Positions 19,971 through 29,376 of a stretch of DNA of 40,345 nucleotides are shown in pieces. A program made the translations under genes and the position numbers. This stretch comes from Candidatus Iainarchaeum sp. (lineage in GTDB: Archaea; Iainarchaeota; Iainarchaeia; Iainarchaeales; JAZDDZ01), in NCBI GenBank assembly GCA_043809245.1, contig JAZDDZ010000034.1, positions 1-40,345 of the forward strand, written 5' to 3'. The notes below the pieces were generated by a model, which was given only the letters and a program-made list of their open reading frames with translations, did not search any database and had not been told where the DNA came from. Position 1 is the first letter of the stretch. Each line of letters begins with the position of its first letter.

Positions 19971-20764
19971 GCGGCTTTCTTCATTTCTGCAAGGTATGCG
20001 CCTAATTCTTCAAGCATCTTTTCACAGTTGCCAATGTTTCTCTCAATGATTTTTTCCACCGCGCTTCCCACAATCGCGCAGTCAGCCCCCGCAGCGCAAA
20101 CCGCCTGAACGTGCTCCTGCTTTGAAATTCCAAAACCAACGCACAAAGGCAGCTTTGTGTGCGGCCTGACCTTTTTTATCAGGGAAACTGTTTCAGTGCC
20201 CAATTCGCTTCTCTCACCCGTAATTCCAAGCAATGAAACAAGGTAAACAAAGCCCGAAGCCTTTGACAAAATTTTTTTCATGCGCTGCGGCGTAATTGTT
20301 GGCGTCACCAAAAAAACCTGGTTCAAGCCCGATTTTTTTGCTGCCTTCAAAAGCGGTTTAGATTCCTCAACCGGCGCATCAGCTGCAAGAACTGCGTCAA
20401 CTCCCGCTTCCTTTGCCTTTGCGTAAAATGCGTCAATTCCGTTTGAGTAAATTAAATTGTAATACACAAGCAGCCCGATTGGAATTTCCGCATCCAGTTT
20501 CCTGATCTCATTAATAAGTTCAAAGCACTTATCTGAATTCATTCCATTCGCCAAAGACCTTGTGTCCGCTGCCTGGATTGTTTTTCCGTCAGCAATCGGG
20601 TCAGAGAAAGGGAAACCCAACTCCAACGCGTCCGCGTGCTTGAGCAATTCCTTCACAATCTCAAGAGATGTCTCATAATCAGGGTCGCCTAAAACAACAA
20701 ACGGCATCAAACCCTTTTCGCCTTTTTTGCGCAGCTCCGCAAAGCGTTTTTCATAGCGGTTCAT
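19955..20764 (-). CDS. trpA: Tryptophan synthase alpha subunit
   Basis: PFVVLGDP, LELGFPFSDPIADGKTIQ.A, LLVYYN, YLVS..GITG, VGFGIS, IVGSA. Confidence 0.97.
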   Translation of the reverse strand: MNRYEKRFAELRKKGEKGLMPFVVLGDPDYETSLEIVKELLKHADALELGFPFSDPIADGKTIQAADTRSLANGMNSDKCFELINEIRKLDAEIPIGLLVYYNLIYSNGIDAFYAKAKEAGVDAVLAADAPVEESKPLLKAAKKSGLNQVFLVTPTITPQRMKKILSKASGFVYLVSLLGITGERSELGTETVSLIKKVRPHTKLPLCVGFGISKQEHVQAVCAAGADCAIVGSAVEKIIERNIGNCEKMLEELGAYLAEMKKAAVYKT

Positions 20765-21501
20765 TTTACACGCCTCCTTCCAAAAAGGGTCATTTTTTTC
20801 TTTACCTTTAGTCTCGGTTTACCCGGGATTGGGGCGGTTTTTTTTATTTTGTGGGCTGGAATTCCATAAAGAATCTCCGTTGTCCTCGGGTTTATTTCCA
20901 AGCGCCTGCCATTCCTGAAAAGATTTTTATATAATACAAAAGGAATGTTTCTAAGGGTGCCGCGTTCCTTATCGTAATGAATTTTTGGTTCCCTCGTTGA
21001 AAATTCACTGCGGAGTTCCGGTATATCTAATGCTCTAACCAAGTTTCCCATCATGTCAGGCAGGCAAGGGCATGAGGCAATCACGGTTTCACCATGCCCT
21101 TCAATCCTTAATTTTTTTTTGTCAAAAGACAAATTTTTACGTTCAATGGCTTCGCGGAACATTTGGGGCGATATATCAAGGAATGAATTCCCTGAGAGCA
21201 CGATAAGCCTTTCTTTCGGGATATGCGTAATTAAGTATTTGAATAACCTGTCCTGCCTCGGGATCCTTTCTTCATTCATTACCAAAAAAAATGCAGTGTT
21301 TGGATTAGAGAACTTGCTTTTCATATCCCTGCCTATTTGATTGGCTATTTCTGCGGCTAATTTTTGTGGATTTATTGAATAGTTTCTAAAATTAAGGGTT
21401 TCATAATATGTTTCACCTTTTTCGCTTTCAGGATCCACAAGCAATCCGAATGCAGGATGCACAATCAATTCAATCTTGTCAATTGGGATCGGCTTGCTCA
21501 A
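20761..21501 (-). CDS. Hypothetical ORFan inserted between trpB and trpA
   Basis: Long open frame. Probable TTG start at 21501 overlaps the trpB TGA (TTGA), and the stop overlaps the trpA ATG (ATGA). AT-richer codons; no family recognised. Confidence 0.65.
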
Positions 21502-22691
21502 ATCTCTTCCCCCGATAATTCTTTTGCCGCGTGGAAAATGTCCTTGTCCCCGCGGCCGCTTAAATTGATTATTATTATGTCGTTTTTTTTGCATTTTTTC
21601 GCGTACTTGACAGCGTAAGCCATTGCGTGCGCTGATTCAAGCGCGGGAATAACGCCTTCCTCTTCGCTTAACAGCTTGAACGCATCAAGCGCTTCCTTGT
21701 CTGTTGCGTAAGTGTATTTCGCCCTTCCCATTTCACGCAGCATTGAGTGCTCAGGCCCAACTGCACTGTAATCCAATCCAGCGCTCACGGAATGCGTGTT
21801 GAAAATCTGACCGAACTTGTCCTGCAAAACATAAGTCAGTGTGCCGTGCAATACGCCTTTCCTTCCGAATTTTGGGTCAGCGAACCTTGCCGCGTGCTTT
21901 CCGCTTTCAATCCCCAAGCCGCCTGCTTCAACTCCAATCAATTCCACGCCTTTGTCATCCAAAAAGCCCTTGAATATTCCAATCGCATTGCTTCCGCCTC
22001 CCACGCATGCAATAACCGCTTTCGGAAGCCTTCCCTCTCTTTGCATTATCTGTTTTCTTGCCTCTTTCCCGATGCAGCTCTGGAAGTATGCAACCATTGA
22101 AGGGTAAGGGTGGGGGCCCAAAACAGAGCCAAGCAAGTAATGCGTTGTCCTGACGCTTGCAGTCCAGTCACGCAGGCATTCGTTGATTGCATCCTTCAAT
22201 GTCTTTGAGCCGGTTGCAACCGGATTAACCTTTGCTCCCTGCAGCCTCATTCTGAAGACATTGGGCTTTTGCCTTTCAATGTCAACCGTGCCCATATAAA
22301 TTTCCGCGTCCAAGCCGAGCTTTGCGCCTGCAGTTGCAACCGCTGTGCCGTGCTGGCCTGCGCCTGTTTCCGCGATGATTCTTTTCTTGCCCATTTTTTT
22401 TGCCAAGAGCGCCTGCCCAAGTGCGTTGTTTATTTTGTGCGCGCCTGTGTGAGCCAAGTCCTCGCGTTTAAGGTAGACTTTGCACCCTAACTTTCTGCTT
22501 AAATTGTCAGAAAATGTCAGCGCTGTTGGCCTTCCCACGTAATCCTTGAGCAGGCCGTCAAGCTCTTTGTTGAATTTCTTGTCTTTCTTGAACTTCAAAA
22601 AAGCGGCTTCAAGCTCCTCTAACGCGGGCATAAGCGTTTCCGGCACGAATACCCCGCCATAGCCTCCGCGAAATTTTCCAAGCGATTTCAT
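21498..22691 (-). CDS. trpB: Tryptophan synthase beta subunit (TrpB1)
   Basis: [66 protein letters not shown]. Confidence 0.98.
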
Positions 22692-24073
22692 TTGCGCGCC
22701 TCCATTATATTATTCAGCAACCTATTTAATTTCCTTTCACTTTTTTCCCCGGGCTTTTCTTCTGCGCCTGAAGCGACATCAATGCAGTAAGGCTTGAATG
22801 TGCGAAGAATTCCTTTAACGTTTTCAGGTGTTATTCCGCCTGCGAGAAAAACCTTTTTCCCGTGCATTTTCTTCAGTTCCATTAAGATTTTGGCATTGAC
22901 TTTTTTTCCTGTCCCGCCGTAAAAGCCTTCTTTTTTTGCGTCAATCAATACAAGTTCGTTTTTGAATGCATTGGCAGCGCTTAAGTCCGCTGCATTTTCC
23001 GCGCGGATTGCCTTGAACCCGTTTGGGAAAGAATTCACAAAAGCCGTGCTTTCGTCTCCCGAGAACTGCAGCATCTGCACGCCGCTTTCTCTTGCAATTT
23101 TCCCTACTTCTTCCTTGGAGTGGTTTACAAAAACCCCGACTGGAACAGCCTTTCCTTTCAGCCCTGAAATTATTTTTTTCGCCTTTTCCGGCACAACATA
23201 TCTTGGGCTTTCTTTGAAAAAATTAAAGCCAATGAAGTCCGCGCCGCTTTCCTCGCACATTTTTGCATCCACTGCATTGGTTATCCCGCATATTTTCACC
23301 AATGGAATTCCCTTCAGTTCCTTCAGCTTCGATTCGAGGTTTCGCGCTTTCATTAGCGCCGAGCCGACAAGCACTGCATCAGCCTTTCCTTCAATCGCTT
23401 CAATCTGCTGCCTTTCGCTGAAGCCGCTTTCCGCAACCAATGCAAGGGAATTTTTTTTTCTTTTAGGGATAAGCTTCTCCATCTTGTCGAAATTTTTAGG
23501 ATTTACTTTAAGGGAATGCAGGTCGCGGTTGTTTATTCCAACAATTTTTGCCCTGCTTTTCAGCACTTTCCGCAATGAATTAGGGCACTCGCATTCAACA
23601 ACAGCATCCATTCCAAGCGATTCCGTAAAGGAAATCAGGGAATTCAGCTTTTCCAGCGGCACGAGATTTGAAATGAGCAGAACAGCGTCAGCGCCGTTCT
23701 CCCTGAGCCCGATTATCTGCCTTGCGTCAATTACAAAGTCCTTTGCAAGAACCGGAAGTTTTGTGTTTTGCTTCACTTCGCGCAAAAGCGAGAGGCTGCC
23801 GTTGAAAAATTTCGGTTCAGTGACAACTGAAACCGCGTCCGCATACTTTCCGTAAACCGCAAGAGTTTCCTTCAGGTTAATTTCCTTTCTCAATTCGCCC
23901 GCGCTAGGCGAAGCCTTCTTTATTTCCGCAATCAGCCGCAATCCTTTTTTCCTGCCGCCTGAAACCGCCCTAATGAACGAATGGCCTGCCTTTTTCACTT
24001 CCTTCATCACAAAACTGTTTTCTCCGGCAAGTTCTTTTCGCTTGATTTCCCTTATTTTGTCCAAAAAATTCAT
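22688..24073 (-). CDS. trpCF: Fused indole-3-glycerol-phosphate synthase / phosphoribosylanthranilate isomerase (TrpC-TrpF)
   Basis: [38 protein letters not shown], followed by [38 protein letters not shown]. Confidence 0.93.
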
Positions 24074-25092
24074 TTGTTGCTCGCCCCTTTCAGTTGCTCC
24101 AGCTTTTTCAGCGCTGCGCCGGAATCAATTGATTTTTCCGCTGCCTTAATTCCTTTCGCAATTGTTTTCGTTTTCCCGTTCGCGTAAATTGCCGCGCCGG
24201 CGTTAAGCAAAACAATCTCTTTTTTTGCGCCTTTTTCCCTTCCTTCAAGCAGTCCCCTGATTACTGCGGCGCTTTCATCAGCGTTTTTCACCTGCAGTTC
24301 CCCAAGCGACGCTTTCCTGAAGCCGAATTCAGCTGCATCAATGGAATATTTCCTTATCTTCCCGCCCGCCACTTCAAAAACAATGTTCTCGCCTTCCAGC
24401 GTACTCAATTCATCCATTTTTCCCGAGGCGCCGTTTGCCACAAGCGCTTTTTCCACTTTGACAAGCTGGAGCGCTTTCGCGATTTTTTCCGCCATTTCAA
24501 TGCTGTAAACTCCGACAAGCCGTGTTTCCGCGTTCGCAGGGTTAACCAATGGGCCGAGAATATTGAAAATCGTCCTCACACCCAATTCTTTTCTAACAGG
24601 CATTGCGTGCTTCATCGCCTGATGGCAGCAAGGCGCAAACAAAAAGCCAATGCCAACTTTTTCAATTATCCCTGCAACTTTTTCCGCTGGCAAATCAACT
24701 TTCACTCCAAGTTTCTCAAGCACATCCGCACTTCCCGAGCCACTTGAAACCGCGCGGTTTCCGTGCTTTGCGACAATGCATCCAGCGCCCGCTGCAACAA
24801 ACGCTGCTGCGGTGCTGATGTTAAACGTATTCAGTTTGTCGCCGCCAGTGCCGCACGTGTCCAGCAGCTTTCCCTTCACTTTCGGCTTTACCGCGCTCAT
24901 AACCGCCTGCATTGACTTCACTCCAGCGGCAATTTCCCCGGGTGTTTCGCCTTTCACTCTCAAGCCAATGAGAAACGCGGAAATCTGCGCAGGCGTTGCC
25001 TCTCCGCGCATTATTTCATCAAAGGCTGCTTTTGCCTCTGCTTCGCTCAAATTTTTTCCTTCAACCAGTTTCGCGATGCATTCCTGAATCAT
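24070..25092 (-). CDS. trpD: Anthranilate phosphoribosyltransferase
   Basis: DTCGTGGD..TFNIST, AKHGNRAVSS.SGSADVLE, RTIFNILGPL.NP, DELS. Confidence 0.97.
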   Translation of the reverse strand: MIQECIAKLVEGKNLSEAEAKAAFDEIMRGEATPAQISAFLIGLRVKGETPGEIAAGVKSMQAVMSAVKPKVKGKLLDTCGTGGDKLNTFNISTAAAFVAAGAGCIVAKHGNRAVSSGSGSADVLEKLGVKVDLPAEKVAGIIEKVGIGFLFAPCCHQAMKHAMPVRKELGVRTIFNILGPLVNPANAETRLVGVYSIEMAEKIAKALQLVKVEKALVANGASGKMDELSTLEGENIVFEVAGGKIRKYSIDAAEFGFRKASLGELQVKNADESAAVIRGLLEGREKGAKKEIVLLNAGAAIYANGKTKTIAKGIKAAEKSIDSGAALKKLEQLKGASNK

Positions 25093-25096
25093 TTTT

Positions 25097-25603
25097 TCAC
25101 AGCCCTAATTCATCCATAAGCTTTCTTACTTCTTCGATATATAACCTATTAATTAGATTAGTCTTGGCGTGCATGCTGTATTGTTTTTCTGTTTCCAAAA
25201 AAATTCTTTTAACAATCGCATCATAACATTCCCCTGTTTTTCTTGTTATTTCTTCAGATGGTTTGCCTACAATGCGCCTTCCTTCAGTTAGTGCCGAGCT
25301 GTTCTGTGCGGCTGCTTCATGCTTTGATACTTTTTCAAGCAGTAGGTTCCATAAGATCGCCCCGACATTGTTTAGTGCGCTTTTATATGAAGCCATTTTA
25401 AATGGCGCGATTACTCCTGCATTTTTTATAATTTTGTAGGATTCATCAAGCCGTGTTATTTTCTCTTCAATGAGTTTCCTTGCATTTTCTTTGTGTGCAA
25501 TGTTTGCAAACTTTTTCATGGCAATTTTAACGGGAATTGCGCTAATCCTATACGTTAAGTTTGAAGTCATTCTCTTTATGCGGGGCATTATCTTTCCCAT
25601 CAA
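25097..25603 (-). CDS. Hypothetical ORFan inserted between trpG and trpD
   Basis: 168-aa basic, probably helical ORF whose start overlaps the trpG stop (TTGATG). AT-richer codons; no family recognised. Confidence 0.6.
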   Translation of the reverse strand: MMGKIMPRIKRMTSNLTYRISAIPVKIAMKKFANIAHKENARKLIEEKITRLDESYKIIKNAGVIAPFKMASYKSALNNVGAILWNLLLEKVSKHEAAAQNSSALTEGRRIVGKPSEEITRKTGECYDAIVKRIFLETEKQYSMHAKTNLINRLYIEEVRKLMDELGL

Positions 25604-26175
25604 ATCAACCCAATCAAGTTTTCAATTATTTTTCCGCCTTCGGGTGTCATAATGCTTTCCGGGTGGAACTGCACTCCCTCAACAAAGTATTTTTTGTGCC
25701 TTACAGCCATAACAACTCCGCTCTCGGTTTTCGCAGTAACCTTTAACTCGGAAGGAATTTTCAGGCCTGAAAGCGAATGGTAGCGGCCAGCCTGAAAAGG
25801 GTTCTCCAGGCCGTTGAATATATGCTCGTTGTCATGTGAAATCATTGAAGGCTTTCCATGGATTGTTTCAGGGCACTTGCCCACAATTCCCCCAAACGCC
25901 TCAACAATCGCCTGGTGCCCCAAGCACACGCCTAAAATAGGCAGCACGCCCTTGAATTCCCTAATAACTTCAAGGGAAATTCCAGCATCCTTTGGCGCAC
26001 TCGGCCCCGGGGAAATCACTATCAACTTCGGCTTGAATTCCTTAACCACTTCGTAAATTTTTTCCATCGGCGTATTGTTCCTGTAAACCAATACATTGCA
26101 TCCGCGCTTTTCAAATTCATCAACCAAATTGTAGGTGAAAGAGTCAAAGTTGTCAATGAACAAAATGTTTTTCAT
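25600..26175 (-). CDS. trpG: Anthranilate synthase component II (glutamine amidotransferase)
   Basis: IDNFDSFTYNL, ISPGP, GVCLGHQ, RYHSL, GVQFHPES. Confidence 0.96.
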   Translation of the reverse strand: MKNILFIDNFDSFTYNLVDEFEKRGCNVLVYRNNTPMEKIYEVVKEFKPKLIVISPGPSAPKDAGISLEVIREFKGVLPILGVCLGHQAIVEAFGGIVGKCPETIHGKPSMISHDNEHIFNGLENPFQAGRYHSLSGLKIPSELKVTAKTESGVVMAVRHKKYFVEGVQFHPESIMTPEGGKIIENLIGLI

Positions 26176-27797
26176 CGCCTTGCACTCTCCGCCAACTCAA
26201 TTGCCTTAATGCACGCTCGCGCCTTTTTCTCCGATTCAATGAATTCCTTTTCCGGAACCGAGTCAAAAACAATTCCCGCGCCGGCGCGTGTGACTGCTTT
26301 CCCGTTTTTCAGGCGCATGCACCTGATTGCAATGCACGAATCAAAGTCCCCTGCTGGCGTTAAATAGCCAACGCTTCCACCGTAAAATCCGCGCTTTGTT
26401 TTCTCATATTGCCTTATGAGCTTCATTGCCTCAACTTTCGGCGCGCCGGTCAAAGTGCCCATGTTCATTGACGCAAGGTAAGCATGCAATGCATCAAAAC
26501 CTTCCTTTAGCTCGCCTTTCACATTTGAAACAATGTGCTGCACGTGTGAGTATTTTTCCACAATGTAAGGCTTGTCCACGTGCCTTGTTCCCGCTTTGCA
26601 TACTCGTGCTACATCATTCCTTGCCAAATCAACAAGCATTGTGTGCTCAGCCAGTTCCTTTTCATCAAGCTTTAATTCGGTTTCAAACCTTGAATCTAAG
26701 TCTGCGTCAAGCTTTCCATTAACATATCCACGTGGCTTTGTTCCGGCAATAGGCCTGATTTCAACTGTTTTGGCTCCGTTGCCTTCAATGCGGATGAATG
26801 TCTCAGGCGAACTCCCAAGCAATACTCCTGTTGACTGATTTAAGTAAAACATGTAAGGCGAGGGATTAAACCTGCGCAGTTCTGCGTAAATTTCCAATGG
26901 CTCCGCGGAATAATTTGAAGTTATTGTGCGCGAAAGCACTAACTGGAAAACATCGCCGGCAAAAATGTTTTCCTTGGCTTTTTTCACCATTTCAACGAAT
27001 TCCTTTTCGCTTGTGTCAGTGGAAACCCTTGGCTTTGCTTTTTCCGCTTTCCACTCCTGTTTCGCTTCAATTGTTTCAGCCGAATGGAATTTTTTCTCCA
27101 GCCCATCCAGCTTTTTTTCGCATTCATCGGCAATCTCTTTGAATTCTTCGCCGAACACAAGCGCATTTGCTATTAACAGCAGTTTTTTTTGTTTGTGGTC
27201 CAAGGTGAAAAGAGAATCGTGAAAGCATAACTCGTAATCAGGCTCTTTCAGCTCATCGCGCTCGTTTTCCGGCAGTTCCTCAAACTGGTCAATGAAGTCA
27301 TAGGAGATGTTGCCAAATAATCCAGCGAAAGGCGCCAGCGGCTTGTCTTTCGGTGGCTTTAACTTGAATGCAATCGCACGCAAAATATCGGCGTGCGTTT
27401 TAAGCTTCAGCCTTTCTTCCTCGGAAAAACTCCCTTTTTTCTGCGAAAGCCTTCCTGAAATGCTTTTTTTGCCTGCGCTTACTTCATCGCAGAAAGAAAA
27501 ATCATCCGCAATGGAGTCAATGAATTTTTCACCCAGAGAATTCAGCGCGCGAATTTCAAATTCTGCTTTTCTTCCAGTCACCTTAACGCAGGGTTCGCTT
27601 GACCCAATGCTTTTCTCGCCGTACCTTGTTATGATGTCAGCTGACTCCAGGAGCATTGAATTCTCTTTTCTGCCGTAATCCGATAGCTCAGCGAAAAATG
27701 AGAGAGCATCAGGGCTGCCGCTGCCTAATCCAATTTCCCGCACAATTGGCGTGATTGAGCCTTTTCCTGCATTTGCAATTTTTTCTTCTATTTTCAT
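26172..27797 (-). CDS. trpE: Anthranilate synthase component I
   Basis: LLESA, GDVFQLVLSR, NPSPYMF, GSSPE, PIAGTKPRG, KELAEHTMLVDLARND, MNMGTLTGAPK, AGAGIVFDS. Confidence 0.96.
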   Translation of the reverse strand: MKIEEKIANAGKGSITPIVREIGLGSGSPDALSFFAELSDYGRKENSMLLESADIITRYGEKSIGSSEPCVKVTGRKAEFEIRALNSLGEKFIDSIADDFSFCDEVSAGKKSISGRLSQKKGSFSEEERLKLKTHADILRAIAFKLKPPKDKPLAPFAGLFGNISYDFIDQFEELPENERDELKEPDYELCFHDSLFTLDHKQKKLLLIANALVFGEEFKEIADECEKKLDGLEKKFHSAETIEAKQEWKAEKAKPRVSTDTSEKEFVEMVKKAKENIFAGDVFQLVLSRTITSNYSAEPLEIYAELRRFNPSPYMFYLNQSTGVLLGSSPETFIRIEGNGAKTVEIRPIAGTKPRGYVNGKLDADLDSRFETELKLDEKELAEHTMLVDLARNDVARVCKAGTRHVDKPYIVEKYSHVQHIVSNVKGELKEGFDALHAYLASMNMGTLTGAPKVEAMKLIRQYEKTKRGFYGGSVGYLTPAGDFDSCIAIRCMRLKNGKAVTRAGAGIVFDSVPEKEFIESEKKARACIKAIELAESARR

Positions 27798-27823
27798 TTT
27801 TTTCGCCTTAAAAGATTTTGGTT

Positions 27824-27896
27824 TGGGGTCGCAGGGATTTGAACCCTGATCAGCTGGTCTGGAGCCAGCCGCACTGCCTGGTTATGCTACAACCCC
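27824..27896 (-). tRNA. tRNA-Trp(CCA), intronless, 3' CCA not encoded
   Basis: Cloverleaf: acceptor GGGGTTG/CGACCCC plus A73, D-stem GCAT/GTGC, anticodon arm GCTGG-CTCCAGA-CCAGC, T-arm CAGGG-TTCAAAT-CCCTG. Confidence 0.95.
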
Positions 27897-27919
27897 TTTA
27901 ATTCCGCTGCCTTGGCGTT

Positions 27920-28031
27920 TTAGCGCCAGCGCCACGAATAAGCGCTGAAAAAAGGAACTAAAAAATTTGCCTTGCGGAAGCTAAAAAGACCTAGAAAATC
28001 AGTGAAGCCAAAGTAAATCGCCTGAATTCAT
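27920..28031 (-). promoter_or_regulatory. Putative trp leader/attenuator: uORF MNSGDLLWLH* (28031-27999) plus overlapping +1 frame ending YSWRWR* (stop 27922-27920)
   Basis: ATG lies 30 nt downstream of the TTTAAATA box. Trp codons at 28010, 27934 and 27928, U-tracts, and alternative GC-rich stems cover the WRWR codons. Confidence 0.6.
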
Positions 28032-28061
28032 GCTTCCACTCAAAAATTCTGCTGCATCATT

Positions 28062-28076
28062 TATTTAAAGCTTTCC
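28062..28076 (-). promoter_or_regulatory. BRE/TATA promoter of the leader-tRNA-Trp-trp transcript
   Basis: Minus strand reads GGAAAG-C-TTTAAATA. Confidence 0.7.
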
Positions 28077-28083
28077 CTGCGGC

Positions 28084-29376
28084 TTAACCGCCGAGCTCTT
28101 CATAGCTCTCGATTTTTCCATCTGGCTTTAGCTTGAAGGCAAAGGTCATTTTGTTGATTAAAACCATTGCCTTCCAGCCGGAATCGGTTTTCTGCATGCT
28201 CGTTATCTTTATTTCCTTGTCCGAGCCGAGCTCTGTTTTTAATGTGAAAAGAAGGTTTAGCTTTGCTGTTCCGTCATCCGACAAGGCAAGCTTGCTTTCC
28301 TGCTGTTTTGCTGCAGGCTCTGGCGCCATAGGCCTTGCCATTGGTTTTGGCGCAATCTGCTGAGGCTGCTGCGACGCTTTCGTTTCCTGCTGTTTTTGCA
28401 CTGGTTTCCAGCTTTCTTCAGGAGGCGCGAAGCCTGAGCCCATTATTTCGCGGTAAATGCCGACCGTCATAAGTGAAAAAATCAGGACGCTGAAAGCTGA
28501 AATAATAAAGCTTGAGATAAACGTTGAAACGTAAACCAAAGCGTAATACATTAACAGCCCGGCGATTTGCTCTGACCCAAGCACGGATATGCTTGAGGCT
28601 CCTGCCACTGAAGGCGCGCTTATTCCGGTTATCGCCGAAAGCGGCAGAAGGATAATCATTTGCAGCACAACCTGGATGATTCCCAAAACAATTGCGCTGA
28701 CTATTCCAACAACAATCATTGCAAGCAGAATTGAAAGCACTTTTCCATCAGTCATTTTCCAAGATGATTTAATTGCGTCAATTATTCCAATGTCCTTATG
28801 CAGGTAAATGACCGGAGACATTGACAGCCTTAAAGAATTGTAAATTACTATTATTCCGTAAACAAGCAAAAGCAGAAAAGCCAGGATAGCCAGAATCCAG
28901 CCAGCGAATAGTGCGATGATTAATATTACAACCGCTGCTGCCAAAACAAGCAGTAACTTCAAATCCAATGCCGAAAAAATTGCGGCAAAAAATTGCACTA
29001 TTACAAGCAAAACAAGCTTCAGGTATTTAACCAATGAAAACTTCGCGGGCTCTATTCCTGCCTTTTTCAAGCCATAAATTGTAACAAGCGCGTTAACGTA
29101 ATAGCTTACCAATGCGAAAACTATTCCAATCAGTGCCGCAAAAGCAATGAAAAGAAACAAATTGCTCAAAAGCACGATAGGGTTGGTTAAAAGCTGCGCC
29201 AAACTTGCCGGATTGCTTATCAGTGAGGAAATTAAATCCCCAAAAAGCAACCAGCCAATGCCGATAATTAGAAGCCATTCAATTGCGGTGATAACCCATA
29301 GGAGCACAATGTACTTCCATGCAGCCCTGTCCTTGAGCCAGGAAAAGGAAAACAGCAGAATCTTTTCGTAGTCCAT
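28084..29376 (-). CDS. Multi-pass hypothetical membrane protein with soluble C-terminal domain
   Basis: Several TM segments, a ..DAIKSSWKMTDGK.. motif typical of this membrane-domain type, a Q/P-rich linker, and its own TATA box (TTTAAATA at 29414-29407). Confidence 0.75.
   Translation of the reverse strand: MDYEKILLFSFSWLKDRAAWKYIVLLWVITAIEWLLIIGIGWLLFGDLISSLISNPASLAQLLTNPIVLLSNLFLFIAFAALIGIVFALVSYYVNALVTIYGLKKAGIEPAKFSLVKYLKLVLLVIVQFFAAIFSALDLKLLLVLAAAVVILIIALFAGWILAILAFLLLLVYGIIVIYNSLRLSMSPVIYLHKDIGIIDAIKSSWKMTDGKVLSILLAMIVVGIVSAIVLGIIQVVLQMIILLPLSAITGISAPSVAGASSISVLGSEQIAGLLMYYALVYVSTFISSFIISAFSVLIFSLMTVGIYREIMGSGFAPPEESWKPVQKQQETKASQQPQQIAPKPMARPMAPEPAAKQQESKLALSDDGTAKLNLLFTLKTELGSDKEIKITSMQKTDSGWKAMVLINKMTFAFKLKPDGKIESYEELGG

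Follow-up and report, generated by a model that had tools for sequence, protein, structure and literature searches.

How does a short open reading frame (ORF) with a single Trp codon come to share a leader with a second frame that has no start codon and ends in a cluster of Trp codons? The question is raised by a stretch of contig JAZDDZ010000034.1 (assembly GCA_043809245.1) of the archaeon Candidatus Iainarchaeum sp., in which the two frames precede a tRNA-Trp gene and the trp operon. The whole 40,345 nucleotides of this contig are referred to as the window, and all coordinates of the leader, the tRNA-Trp gene and the trp operon are on its minus strand. A leader with the same two frames was recovered from 35 genomes or records, and that it is a real and conserved element is close to certain. 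Judged from its sequence, it is rather probable that the leader acts as a sensor of Trp-charged tRNA-Trp, by means of a programmed +1 frameshift at a hungry UGG codon.

The first of the two frames, ORF1 (the 0 frame; 28031–27999), was present as given in the preliminary description of this locus and encodes MNSGDLLWLH, with one Trp codon; homologous short ORFs exist in relatives. Its codons are ATG (28031–28029), AAT, TCA, GGC, GAT, TTA, CTT, TGG, CTT and CAC, and its TGA stop (28001–27999) lies two codons past the UGG. A TATA-like box, TTTAAATA (28062–28069), is found 30 nt before the ORF1 ATG. The CUU and UGG codons and the base that follows them form the proposed +1 shift heptamer, CUU UGG C (28007–28013), the P-site codon of which is conserved in relatives. 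The heptamer fits the Ty1-type pattern CUU-NGG-C, with GGC as the +1 codon, and slow decoding of UGG would depend on the supply of Trp. A Shine-Dalgarno (SD)-like element, AGGCGAU (28017–28023), ends 3 nt before the CUU. Its duplex with the 3' tail of the genome's own 16S rRNA (...GGAUCACCUCCU) was calculated at −7.4 kcal/mol, a value matched by just 3.1% of background 13-mers, and the element, at near-initiation spacing, may stimulate the shift.

The +1 frame (27920–28009) begins with the GGC at 28009 and continues for 29 sense codons (GFTDFLGLFSFRKANFLVPFFSAYSWRWR; GFTDF...AYSWRWR) to a TAA at 27922–27920; it has no ATG, GTG or TTG and is blocked six codons upstream of GGC. The openness of this frame, its lack of start codons and its YSWRWR end had been described correctly, and the 30 codons ascribed to it include the stop. 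The three U5–U6 tracts noted earlier were confirmed within it and are joined by a shorter one, so that the stretch 27998–27948 holds T4 (27998–27995), T5 (27987–27983), T6 (27965–27960) and T6 (27953–27948). This amounts to three runs of T≥5 per 87 nt, compared with 2.63 per kb in the long ORFs of the window genome. The final codons, UGG CGC UGG CGC (WRWR; 27923–27934), fall in a region (27913–27947) with two predicted and mutually exclusive stems, one pairing CAGCGC (27947–27942) with GCGCUG (27932–27927) and the other UGGCG (27928–27924) with CGCCA (27917–27913), the latter holding the +1 stop codon in its loop. The U tracts are upstream of the stems, no U run follows them, and a tRNA begins 16 nt later.

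This tRNA-Trp(CCA) gene (27896–27824; identified by ARAGORN and, with 63.5 bits, by the Rfam tRNA model) starts 23 nt past the +1 stop and ends 26 nt short of the ATG of trpE (27797–26172; Pfam). It had been overlooked when the leader was placed upstream of the trp operon. The leader is Trp-related, as had been thought, and because the tRNA-Trp gene intervenes it is the tRNA, and not trpE, that it directly adjoins. Taken alone, the open +1 frame of the window leader is not significant (shuffle p = 0.23), since the stretch is T-rich and stop-poor; it is because the two-frame layout is conserved in relatives that it can be called non-random.

Conservation of the two frames among relatives

Relatives were sought by several routes; below, G codes denote genomes, L codes fetched loci or records, and f codes families of the archaeal class that includes the window genome. 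Among 40 genomes of its order, a DNA search matched the tRNA only. Of 20 loci fetched by tRNA similarity, 15 contained tRNA-Trp, with trpE right after the tRNA in five, the window included. ORF1 together with an open +1 frame was present in five of the 15 (L001, L002, L007, L011 and L012), which had been retrieved by tRNA similarity and nothing else. Sixteen of 215 genomes of the class have CTTTGGC at a distance of 70–180 nt upstream of the anticodon arm of tRNA-Trp, compared with 2 of 215 for the reversed pattern used as a control, and a stricter pattern was found in 6 of 196 genomes with none for its control. Fourteen of the 16 hits were analysed as leaders. G104 was discarded as a chance hit, with its site 53 nt from the tRNA and a +1 frame of six codons, and G107 was left out as ARAGORN gave no tRNA in its locus.

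In these first 14 leaders, the open stretch after CUU was 2–8 codons in frame 0, 29–40 codons in frame +1 and 2–21 codons in frame +2. Frame +1 was the longest in all 14, none of which had been selected for that property, and it contained 29 of the TGG codons after the site, with one extra in frame 0 and two in frame +2. Summing the log10 of the per-locus shuffle p values for the open +1 frame gave −11, a figure that overstates the case because the relatives are not independent. The SD-like duplex, calculated with the 16S tail of the window genome for all 14 leaders, had a mean energy of −8.1 kcal/mol against background means of −2.9 to −4.3 kcal/mol, and was among the best 10% of background windows in 11 of the 14.

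A TrpE-like match at 1e-30 was obtained in 59 of the 215 genomes. A survey anchored on trpE, which took in the DNA upstream of 30 further places (at least 49% identity; three cut by contig ends), exposed leader variants that the CTTTGGC pattern had overlooked. The complete set, obtained with a uniform scan, comprises 35 leaders, 30 non-fused and five fused to trpE; 34 belong to 13 families of the class (f1, f2, f4, f6, f16, f19, f21, f23, f24, f25, f27, f28 and f32) and one comes from an archaeal record, L078. Seven false positives of the scan were set aside, six with other codons before TGG and one with a CTT site inside a normally started trpB2; these lack the SD-like context. No such leader was seen upstream of trpE in G016, G025, G167, G178, L079 or L080, or in the fetched parts of G102 and G109. 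A sample at the level of the phylum turned out to contain the same families as the class sample.

The A-site codon is UGG in all 35 leaders. It is preceded by CUU in 33 and by CCC in two (G031 and G177), both of which are able to re-pair in the +1 frame before U, and is followed by C in 22, A in 11 and G in two, hence a +1 codon of GGC, GGA or GGG. The 0-frame stop occurs 1–7 codons past UGG. A TATA-like octamer, mostly TTTAAATA, is located 21–34 nt before the ORF1 ATG in 30 of the 35 leaders and 43 nt before it in another (it was not found in four), and from this position ORF1 looks to be translated and would be the first frame read on a transcript with a short leader or none. A ribosome-binding motif of the GUGAU type is often present 4–5 nt before the ATG. 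The ORF1 homologues have 8–17 codons and the consensus M..[KR][GR]D.LW, and around the site conservation extends to the nucleotide level, as A(A)GG(C)GAU-NNN-CUU-UGG. Beyond the site is a conserved CUGAUUU(A)..UAG, which contributes stop codons to frames 0 and +2 but none to +1.

The +1 ORFs are 28–68 codons long. Among the 30 non-fused leaders they contain at least two Trp codons in 21 cases, one in three and none in six; where there are several, these mostly form WxW or WxWxW within the final 10 codons, and the +1 stop follows within a few codons of WxW. There is no ATG, GTG or TTG before the first Trp codon in 11 of the 30, an ATG in only two, and the position of a start in the +1 frame is not conserved. 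Both the Trp codons and the frame offset are thus kept in relatives, a comparison that the preliminary description had named as a check. Runs of T≥5 number 32 in ~3.35 kb of +1 ORFs, to be set against the 2.63 per kb of long ORFs in the window genome, and 22 of the 30 leaders have at least one. The +1 stop is often in a hairpin loop with the last Trp codon in the 5' arm, and f21 has a tetraloop, GUAG or GUAA, at this place. Stems of 5 bp or more that enclose the +1 stop were found in 11 of 31 leaders versus 15.5% of shuffled windows, and those of at least 4 bp in 17 of 31 versus 34% of shuffles, a modest excess concentrated in f21 and f24. The closest pair of leaders, G027 and G172 (88% identical), is a single 3-nt indel apart; in leader alignments at 60–70% identity, 18 of 44 gap lengths were multiples of 3, but such alignments are unreliable and only the 88% pair is informative. 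Among contigs from three DNA runs, none of which spans 28004–28150, a low-depth one from a relative (15 differences in the 201 nt at 27797–27997) has two 1-nt deletions, at 27897 and 27918; both are outside the +1 ORF, and this coverage is too sparse to carry weight.

The commonest layout is that of the window, with leader, tRNA-Trp and trpE in this order. In G083 and G086 the tRNA-Trp is followed by a trpB2-like gene. In G022 and G106, which gave no TrpE match in the genome search, the leader stands before tRNA-Trp alone, and its +1 frame lacks Trp codons and runs into the tRNA. In the initial set of 14 leaders, WxW is always accompanied by a trp gene downstream (12 of 12; 10 trpE, 2 trpB2-like), and the two leaders that lack Trp codons have no trp gene after them. 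The leaders of G173, G031, G177 and G018 are directly before trpE, without a tRNA. G018 (L056) has two tandem RRDLLW shift sites, of which the second lies in the first one's +1 frame, and its final +1 stop overlaps the trpE start as TAAATG.

In a further five cases (G015, G050, G093, G096 and L078) trpE is reached by reading on in the +1 frame, which agrees with the frame of the tblastn match; G094 seems to be fused likewise and is cut by the contig end. From the site to the conserved TrpE N-terminal motif there is no ATG, GTG or TTG in G015, G050 and L078, a TTG only in G096, and an ATG in G093. Where the trpE leader comes without a tRNA in G093 and G173, the tRNA-Trp gene elsewhere in the genome has an ordinary promoter and no leader. 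A second motif hit in G015 was rejected as it lies inside a gene.

A proposed +1 frameshift sensor, and other explanations

In the proposed mechanism, transcription, directed by the TATA box 30 nt before the ORF1 AUG, would start a few bases ahead of ORF1, and ribosomes would initiate at that AUG and wait, with CUU (Leu) in the P site, for Trp-tRNA at UGG. When Trp-tRNA is plentiful the UGG would be read and translation would end two codons on, at UGA. When it is scarce the A site would remain empty, and the peptidyl-tRNA-Leu(GAG) could re-pair from CUU to UUU (in the CCC leaders, from CCC_U to CCU), a slip that pairing of the SD-like element, 3 nt upstream, with the 16S tail would aid. GGC would next be read by Gly-tRNA, and translation in the +1 frame would proceed for 29 codons across four U tracts to a second stall at WRWR, with the tRNA-Trp gene 23 nt further on. 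As ribosomes would wait at a UGG codon, and tRNA-Trp and the trp pathway are what is encoded downstream, the rate of slipping would report the supply of Trp-tRNA(Trp). We infer the frameshift, its Trp dependence and the output step from this arrangement. A tRNA-Leu(GAG), the reader of CUU, is encoded in the window genome (with a 40-nt intron).

For the output, our working hypothesis couples the leader to termination: leader ribosomes would shield RNA polymerase from termination, either at the U tracts or via aCPSF1/FttA, a factor that causes polarity. A homologue of aCPSF1/FttA (TIGR03675) is encoded in the window genome outside the window, at contig C44:23658–27038. Without a frameshift, ~200 nt of untranslated RNA rich in U tracts would lie between the stop of ORF1 and the start of trpE. 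After a shift, a ribosome would trail the polymerase over the U tracts, giving more tRNA-Trp and more trp mRNA, and the stall at WxW would prolong the protection to the trp genes. In relatives with a fused trpE or an overlapping stop and start, the sensor would act directly on the translation of TrpE.

A number of observations weigh against this mechanism. The sole tRNA-Trp gene found lies downstream of the leader (ARAGORN gave no second one in this 92%-complete genome), so termination in the leader cannot be tight. The predicted fold of the leader (−17 kcal/mol, z = −0.83) is no better than that of shuffles, 41 of 200 of which fold at least as well; the mutually exclusive stems of the preliminary description are therefore present in predicted folds without standing out from chance. 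CTT-TGG is only mildly depleted in the genes of the window genome (77 observed versus 90–111 expected), and since it is not strongly avoided there, the heptamer alone is probably not very shifty. The SD-like element is near initiation spacing, with GGCG 5 nt before CUU in the leader and 6 nt before ATG at trpE, so by sequence this spacing is not clearly strained as it is in prfB. The per-locus shuffle p for the open +1 frame ranges from 0.06 to 0.35, and 8 of the 30 leaders have no run of T≥5. The +1 ORFs of four trpE-linked leaders (G120, G127, G128 and G177) contain zero Trp codons and those of three others just one, and with the former four the correlation between WxW and a trp gene becomes imperfect in the larger set. 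In addition, a GTG is found four codons before GGN in the +1 frame in 5/5 fused versus 5/30 non-fused leaders, and TrpE of the fused genomes may start conventionally at this codon; the GUG may also simply improve the match to the rRNA tail.

The position of the sole tRNA-Trp gene can be accommodated if, as with RF2, the loop adjusts expression to a level and is never switched off completely; the gene can then sit behind the device. The leader would then be a set-point controller for Trp-tRNA(Trp), in which the +1 slip switches on the tRNA-Trp gene and the trp pathway and, in some relatives, TrpE is made only via the slip, in the manner of RF2. We put the chances of this fuller account at about even.

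Two frames in one leader might also be explained without a frameshift. The two ORFs could simply overlap, with the +1 ORF starting at a weak or non-canonical start in the SD-like motif (AUU, or GUG in some relatives) and ORF1 serving as a modulating upstream ORF. In the window and most relatives the +1 frame has AUU as its −3 codon, the GTG at −4 described above would provide a start in all five fused leaders and 5 of the 30 non-fused ones, and the distance of the SD-like element from the site is about that of initiation. However, a start codon is not conserved, and the 11 leaders without ATG, GTG or TTG have none of the usual kind; the −4 codon is mostly GCG or GGG, the −3 codon varies (AUU, AUC, AGC, AAU, GUU), and the SD-like element abuts the AUU with zero spacer. 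An independent start would also leave unexplained the CUU or CCC directly before UGG and a non-U base in 35 of 35 leaders, as well as the exact position of the Trp codon, and a ribosome stalled at UGG would cover the start, which gives the wrong regulatory sign. We therefore consider this explanation unlikely. The +1 shift, initiation at AUU and a 1-nt indel were the three routes into WRWR put forward in the preliminary description, and it is the first of them that the evidence favours. Translation of ORF1 alone is more improbable still. The UGG-NNN-UGG repeats and the hairpins would then be RNA signals, for example a TRAP-like site or a signal for tRNA processing, and the open +1 frame a by-product of T-richness. 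UGG triplets at 3-nt spacing do resemble the repeated protein-binding triplets of TRAP, some of the leaders have a hairpin over the +1 stop, and shuffles leave the +1 frame open in 6–35% of cases per locus. Such a reading does not account for the 29 of 32 TGG codons that share frame +1 with a start-less ORF opening 90–120 nt upstream, despite varying leader lengths, or for the +1 stop that always lies within a few codons of WxW. Nor would it predict that +1 is the longest frame in 14 of 14 leaders not chosen for it, that the 88% pair G027/G172 differs by one 3-nt indel, or that in five cases the +1 frame is trpE itself.

The coexistence of fused, tRNA-less and tRNA-containing versions in the class might suggest a relic, in which an ancestral trpE was fused in +1, or started at GTG, and insertion of the tRNA left behind a decaying open frame without function; the leaders of G022 and G106, before tRNA-Trp alone, do keep an open frame without Trp codons. 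This is very doubtful, as a relic would not keep terminal WxW clusters in 21 of 30 leaders over many families, and would not exclude stops from one frame only while leader interiors diverge to 60–70% identity. An assembly or sequencing indel, with ORF1 and the WRWR frame really being one ORF, has in its favour just that a single-base change would join the frames. The offset is identical in 35 independently assembled genomes or records, and the stops that close frame 0 after the site are conserved, frequently as a pair within CUGAUUU(A)..UAG; because the offset recurs in this way, an indel as the cause of the frame break can be excluded for practical purposes.

A C/D box guide RNA for tRNA-Trp, suggested by an AUGAUG...CUGA arrangement, was considered as another content of the leader, such a guide occurring in the haloarchaeal tRNA-Trp intron. 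It was rejected on its poor C box and wrong spacing, the conserved CUGA being the 0-frame stop; no complementarity of the leader to the tRNA was seen by eye, and no Rfam C/D family in 27300–28500.

Surroundings of the leader and related elements

The genome to which the window belongs (1.48 Mb in 55 contigs, 91.8% complete; its 16S rRNA scores 1417.9 bits against the archaeal SSU model) is presumably that of a member of the small-genome archaea usually grouped as DPANN. The trp operon (20761–27797; Pfam and ORF list) consists of trpE, trpG, a 168-aa ORF (25097–25603) without a Pfam match, trpD, a fused trpCF and two ORFs read as trpB and trpA. The Pfam scan covered the operon through trpCF; the last two ORFs (397 and 277 aa) are putative trpB and trpA on the basis of order and size only, and the putative TrpB aligns with the TrpB2-like ORFs of relatives. 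Just upstream of the leader promoter is a 430-aa low-complexity ORF (28084–29376, minus strand), again without a Pfam match, and beyond it are genes for DAHP synthase and transketolase (Pfam). The closest non-archaeal relatives of the window TrpE (L081–L112) are in Phycisphaerae, Pirellulales and Sedimentisphaerales metagenome-assembled genomes, with 47–51% identity, a hint of a bacterial origin of the trp genes in this archaeal group. The aCPSF1/FttA match is split between model positions 2–355 and 336–630, ~1.45 kb apart within a single 1142-aa open frame, a gap that looks like an intein-type insertion.

The tRNA-Trp gene of the window is free of introns. Introns of ~40–110 nt after the anticodon, missed by ARAGORN in its default mode, are present in the tRNA-Trp genes of L045, L055, L061, L062, L052, L054, L063 and L155. 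Between tRNA-Trp and trpE, members of f21, f24 and f27 (L012, L021, L023, L029–L031 and others) have a palindromic hairpin, ccuuuucuuuu-AG-aaaaagaaaagg, U-rich in its 5' arm and A-rich in its 3' arm, where the window has only AUCUUUUAAGG. This hairpin may be a bidirectional U-tract terminator and thus a second control point.

Some loci have additional or divergent elements. In L046, L053, L047, L044 and L062 (f24) and in L006 (G016), the +1 stop and the tRNA are separated by an additional 60–100 nt of hairpins, among them ccuaucgagcc...ggcgaagauagg, which has a k-turn-like look, and aacgg...ccguu, directly next to the tRNA. In G016 there are only repeats of this kind and a 75-codon ORF (UUG UGG ...) that reads into the tRNA, without a CUU UGG site. 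In L076, from an uncultured Methanosarcinales archaeon, a short ORF (MKSDCRWQG) has CGC instead of CUU before UGG, and a 66-codon +1 frame ends in a TAG that overlaps the GTG start of trpE; this site could be Ty3-like, without re-pairing, or unrelated.

A scan of the whole window genome for the site gave 15 crude hits, with an SD-like element only at the window site and at contig C47:88914 (plus strand; genome G000). The latter is a second leader-like ORF, MRLKGEDLLWLDC and a stop, with a +1 frame of 37 codons at a CUU UGG C site and a strong SD-like duplex of −13 kcal/mol; its strand has no gene downstream. The top hit of a scan for analogous devices with other hungry codons was inside a membrane-protein gene and is a chance match, and the strict filter of that scan missed the window's own site, which makes its negative outcome a weak one.

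Comparison with known systems

The site of the bacterial prfB device reads AGGGGG-UAU-CUU-UGA-C. The leader shares with it a short 0-frame ORF with an early stop, a re-pairable P-site codon, an A-site codon right after the CUU that is, or could be, slow to decode, a long or functional +1 frame, here without a start, and an rRNA-complementary, SD-like element 3 nt upstream; in both, what is sensed, or would be sensed, is the decoder of the A-site codon. The differences are that the A-site codon of the leader is a sense codon, UGG, read by a tRNA, whereas that of prfB is the stop UGA, read by a protein factor, and that the +1 product in the window is a leader peptide and not the regulated protein, only the fused relatives being prfB-like in this respect. 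The leader is also archaeal, and its SD-like element pairs with another part of the 16S tail, at near-initiation spacing. In the excerpted text of a 2016 review of frameshifting, a short 0-frame ORF is both sensor and effector in RF2 synthesis, CCC_UGA serves as a +1 site in phages and pheL, and Ty1 is given as using CUU_AGG_C with a slow A-site codon (PMC5009743). The heptamer of the leader is one base away from that of Ty1 (CUU UGG C versus CUU AGG C), GGC is the next +1 codon in both, and in both a Leu-tRNA in the P site slips, or would slip, while the A-site codon awaits a scarce aminoacyl-tRNA. For Ty1 this tRNA is constitutively rare and the result is a fixed Gag:Pol ratio, whereas in the leader the scarcity would vary with the supply of Trp.

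With trpL the leader has in common a short ORF with Trp codons ahead of trp genes, Trp codons near the end of the leader peptide, alternative hairpins, and a stop near or inside a stem-loop. A trpL-type attenuator, the model that the preliminary description had drawn on, is nevertheless not supported. A ribosome could get to the Trp cluster only in the +1 frame, the 0 frame having one UGG, there is no terminator hairpin followed by a U run, and a tRNA gene stands between leader and operon; a cmscan of 27300–28500 at E≤10 returned 11 matches, none to the Rfam families Trp_leader or T-box. Plain stalling combined with factor-dependent or U-tract termination would, moreover, have the wrong sign, which a frameshift would invert. 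Where untranslated RNA invites termination, stalling lowers expression, and slipping from an empty A site into a longer frame would raise it, so that frameshifting would solve the problem of sign.

Our literature search, at the level of abstracts and with subscription journals and supplements outside its scope, found no description of a Trp-sensing frameshift leader. Of starvation-specific trans-frame products the excerpted review states that 'no examples are known', and the archaeal frameshifting it covers there consists of viral cases, magnesium chelatase and a Sulfolobus possibility (PMC5009743). If the proposed mechanism is true, the leader would be a natural example of the product that this excerpt describes as missing, the first natural sensor of an amino acid to rely on programmed frameshifting, and the first device resembling a ribosome-mediated attenuator to be documented in archaea. 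Little is settled about the means by which archaea link gene expression to the supply of amino acids in the absence of bacterial-style terminator hairpins. For archaeal trp genes, we know only of protein repressors. There is a consequence for annotation too, as the trpE of fused genomes lacks an ATG of its own and gene callers will mis-start or truncate it. The element is small (~110 nt) and made of simple parts, and could serve as a compact sensor of tRNA charging.

Two further systems are alike in output or in the signal. On the tnaC leader of the tryptophanase operon, the ribosome blocks Rho, and the output proposed here is similar in that occupancy of the leader by a ribosome decides whether a termination factor reaches the polymerase. 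TnaC senses free Trp, via the nascent peptide at a stop codon, and high Trp turns a catabolic operon on; the leader, in contrast, would sense charged tRNA at a sense codon, and low Trp would turn biosynthesis on. In the T-box of trp genes in Firmicutes, the RNA binds uncharged tRNA directly, without translation; there, as proposed for the leader, it is the charging of tRNA-Trp and not free Trp that is sensed. The leader thus belongs to none of the prfB, Ty1, trpL and T-box families: its proposed manner of sensing is that of prfB and Ty1, and the purpose it would serve is that of trpL or a T-box.

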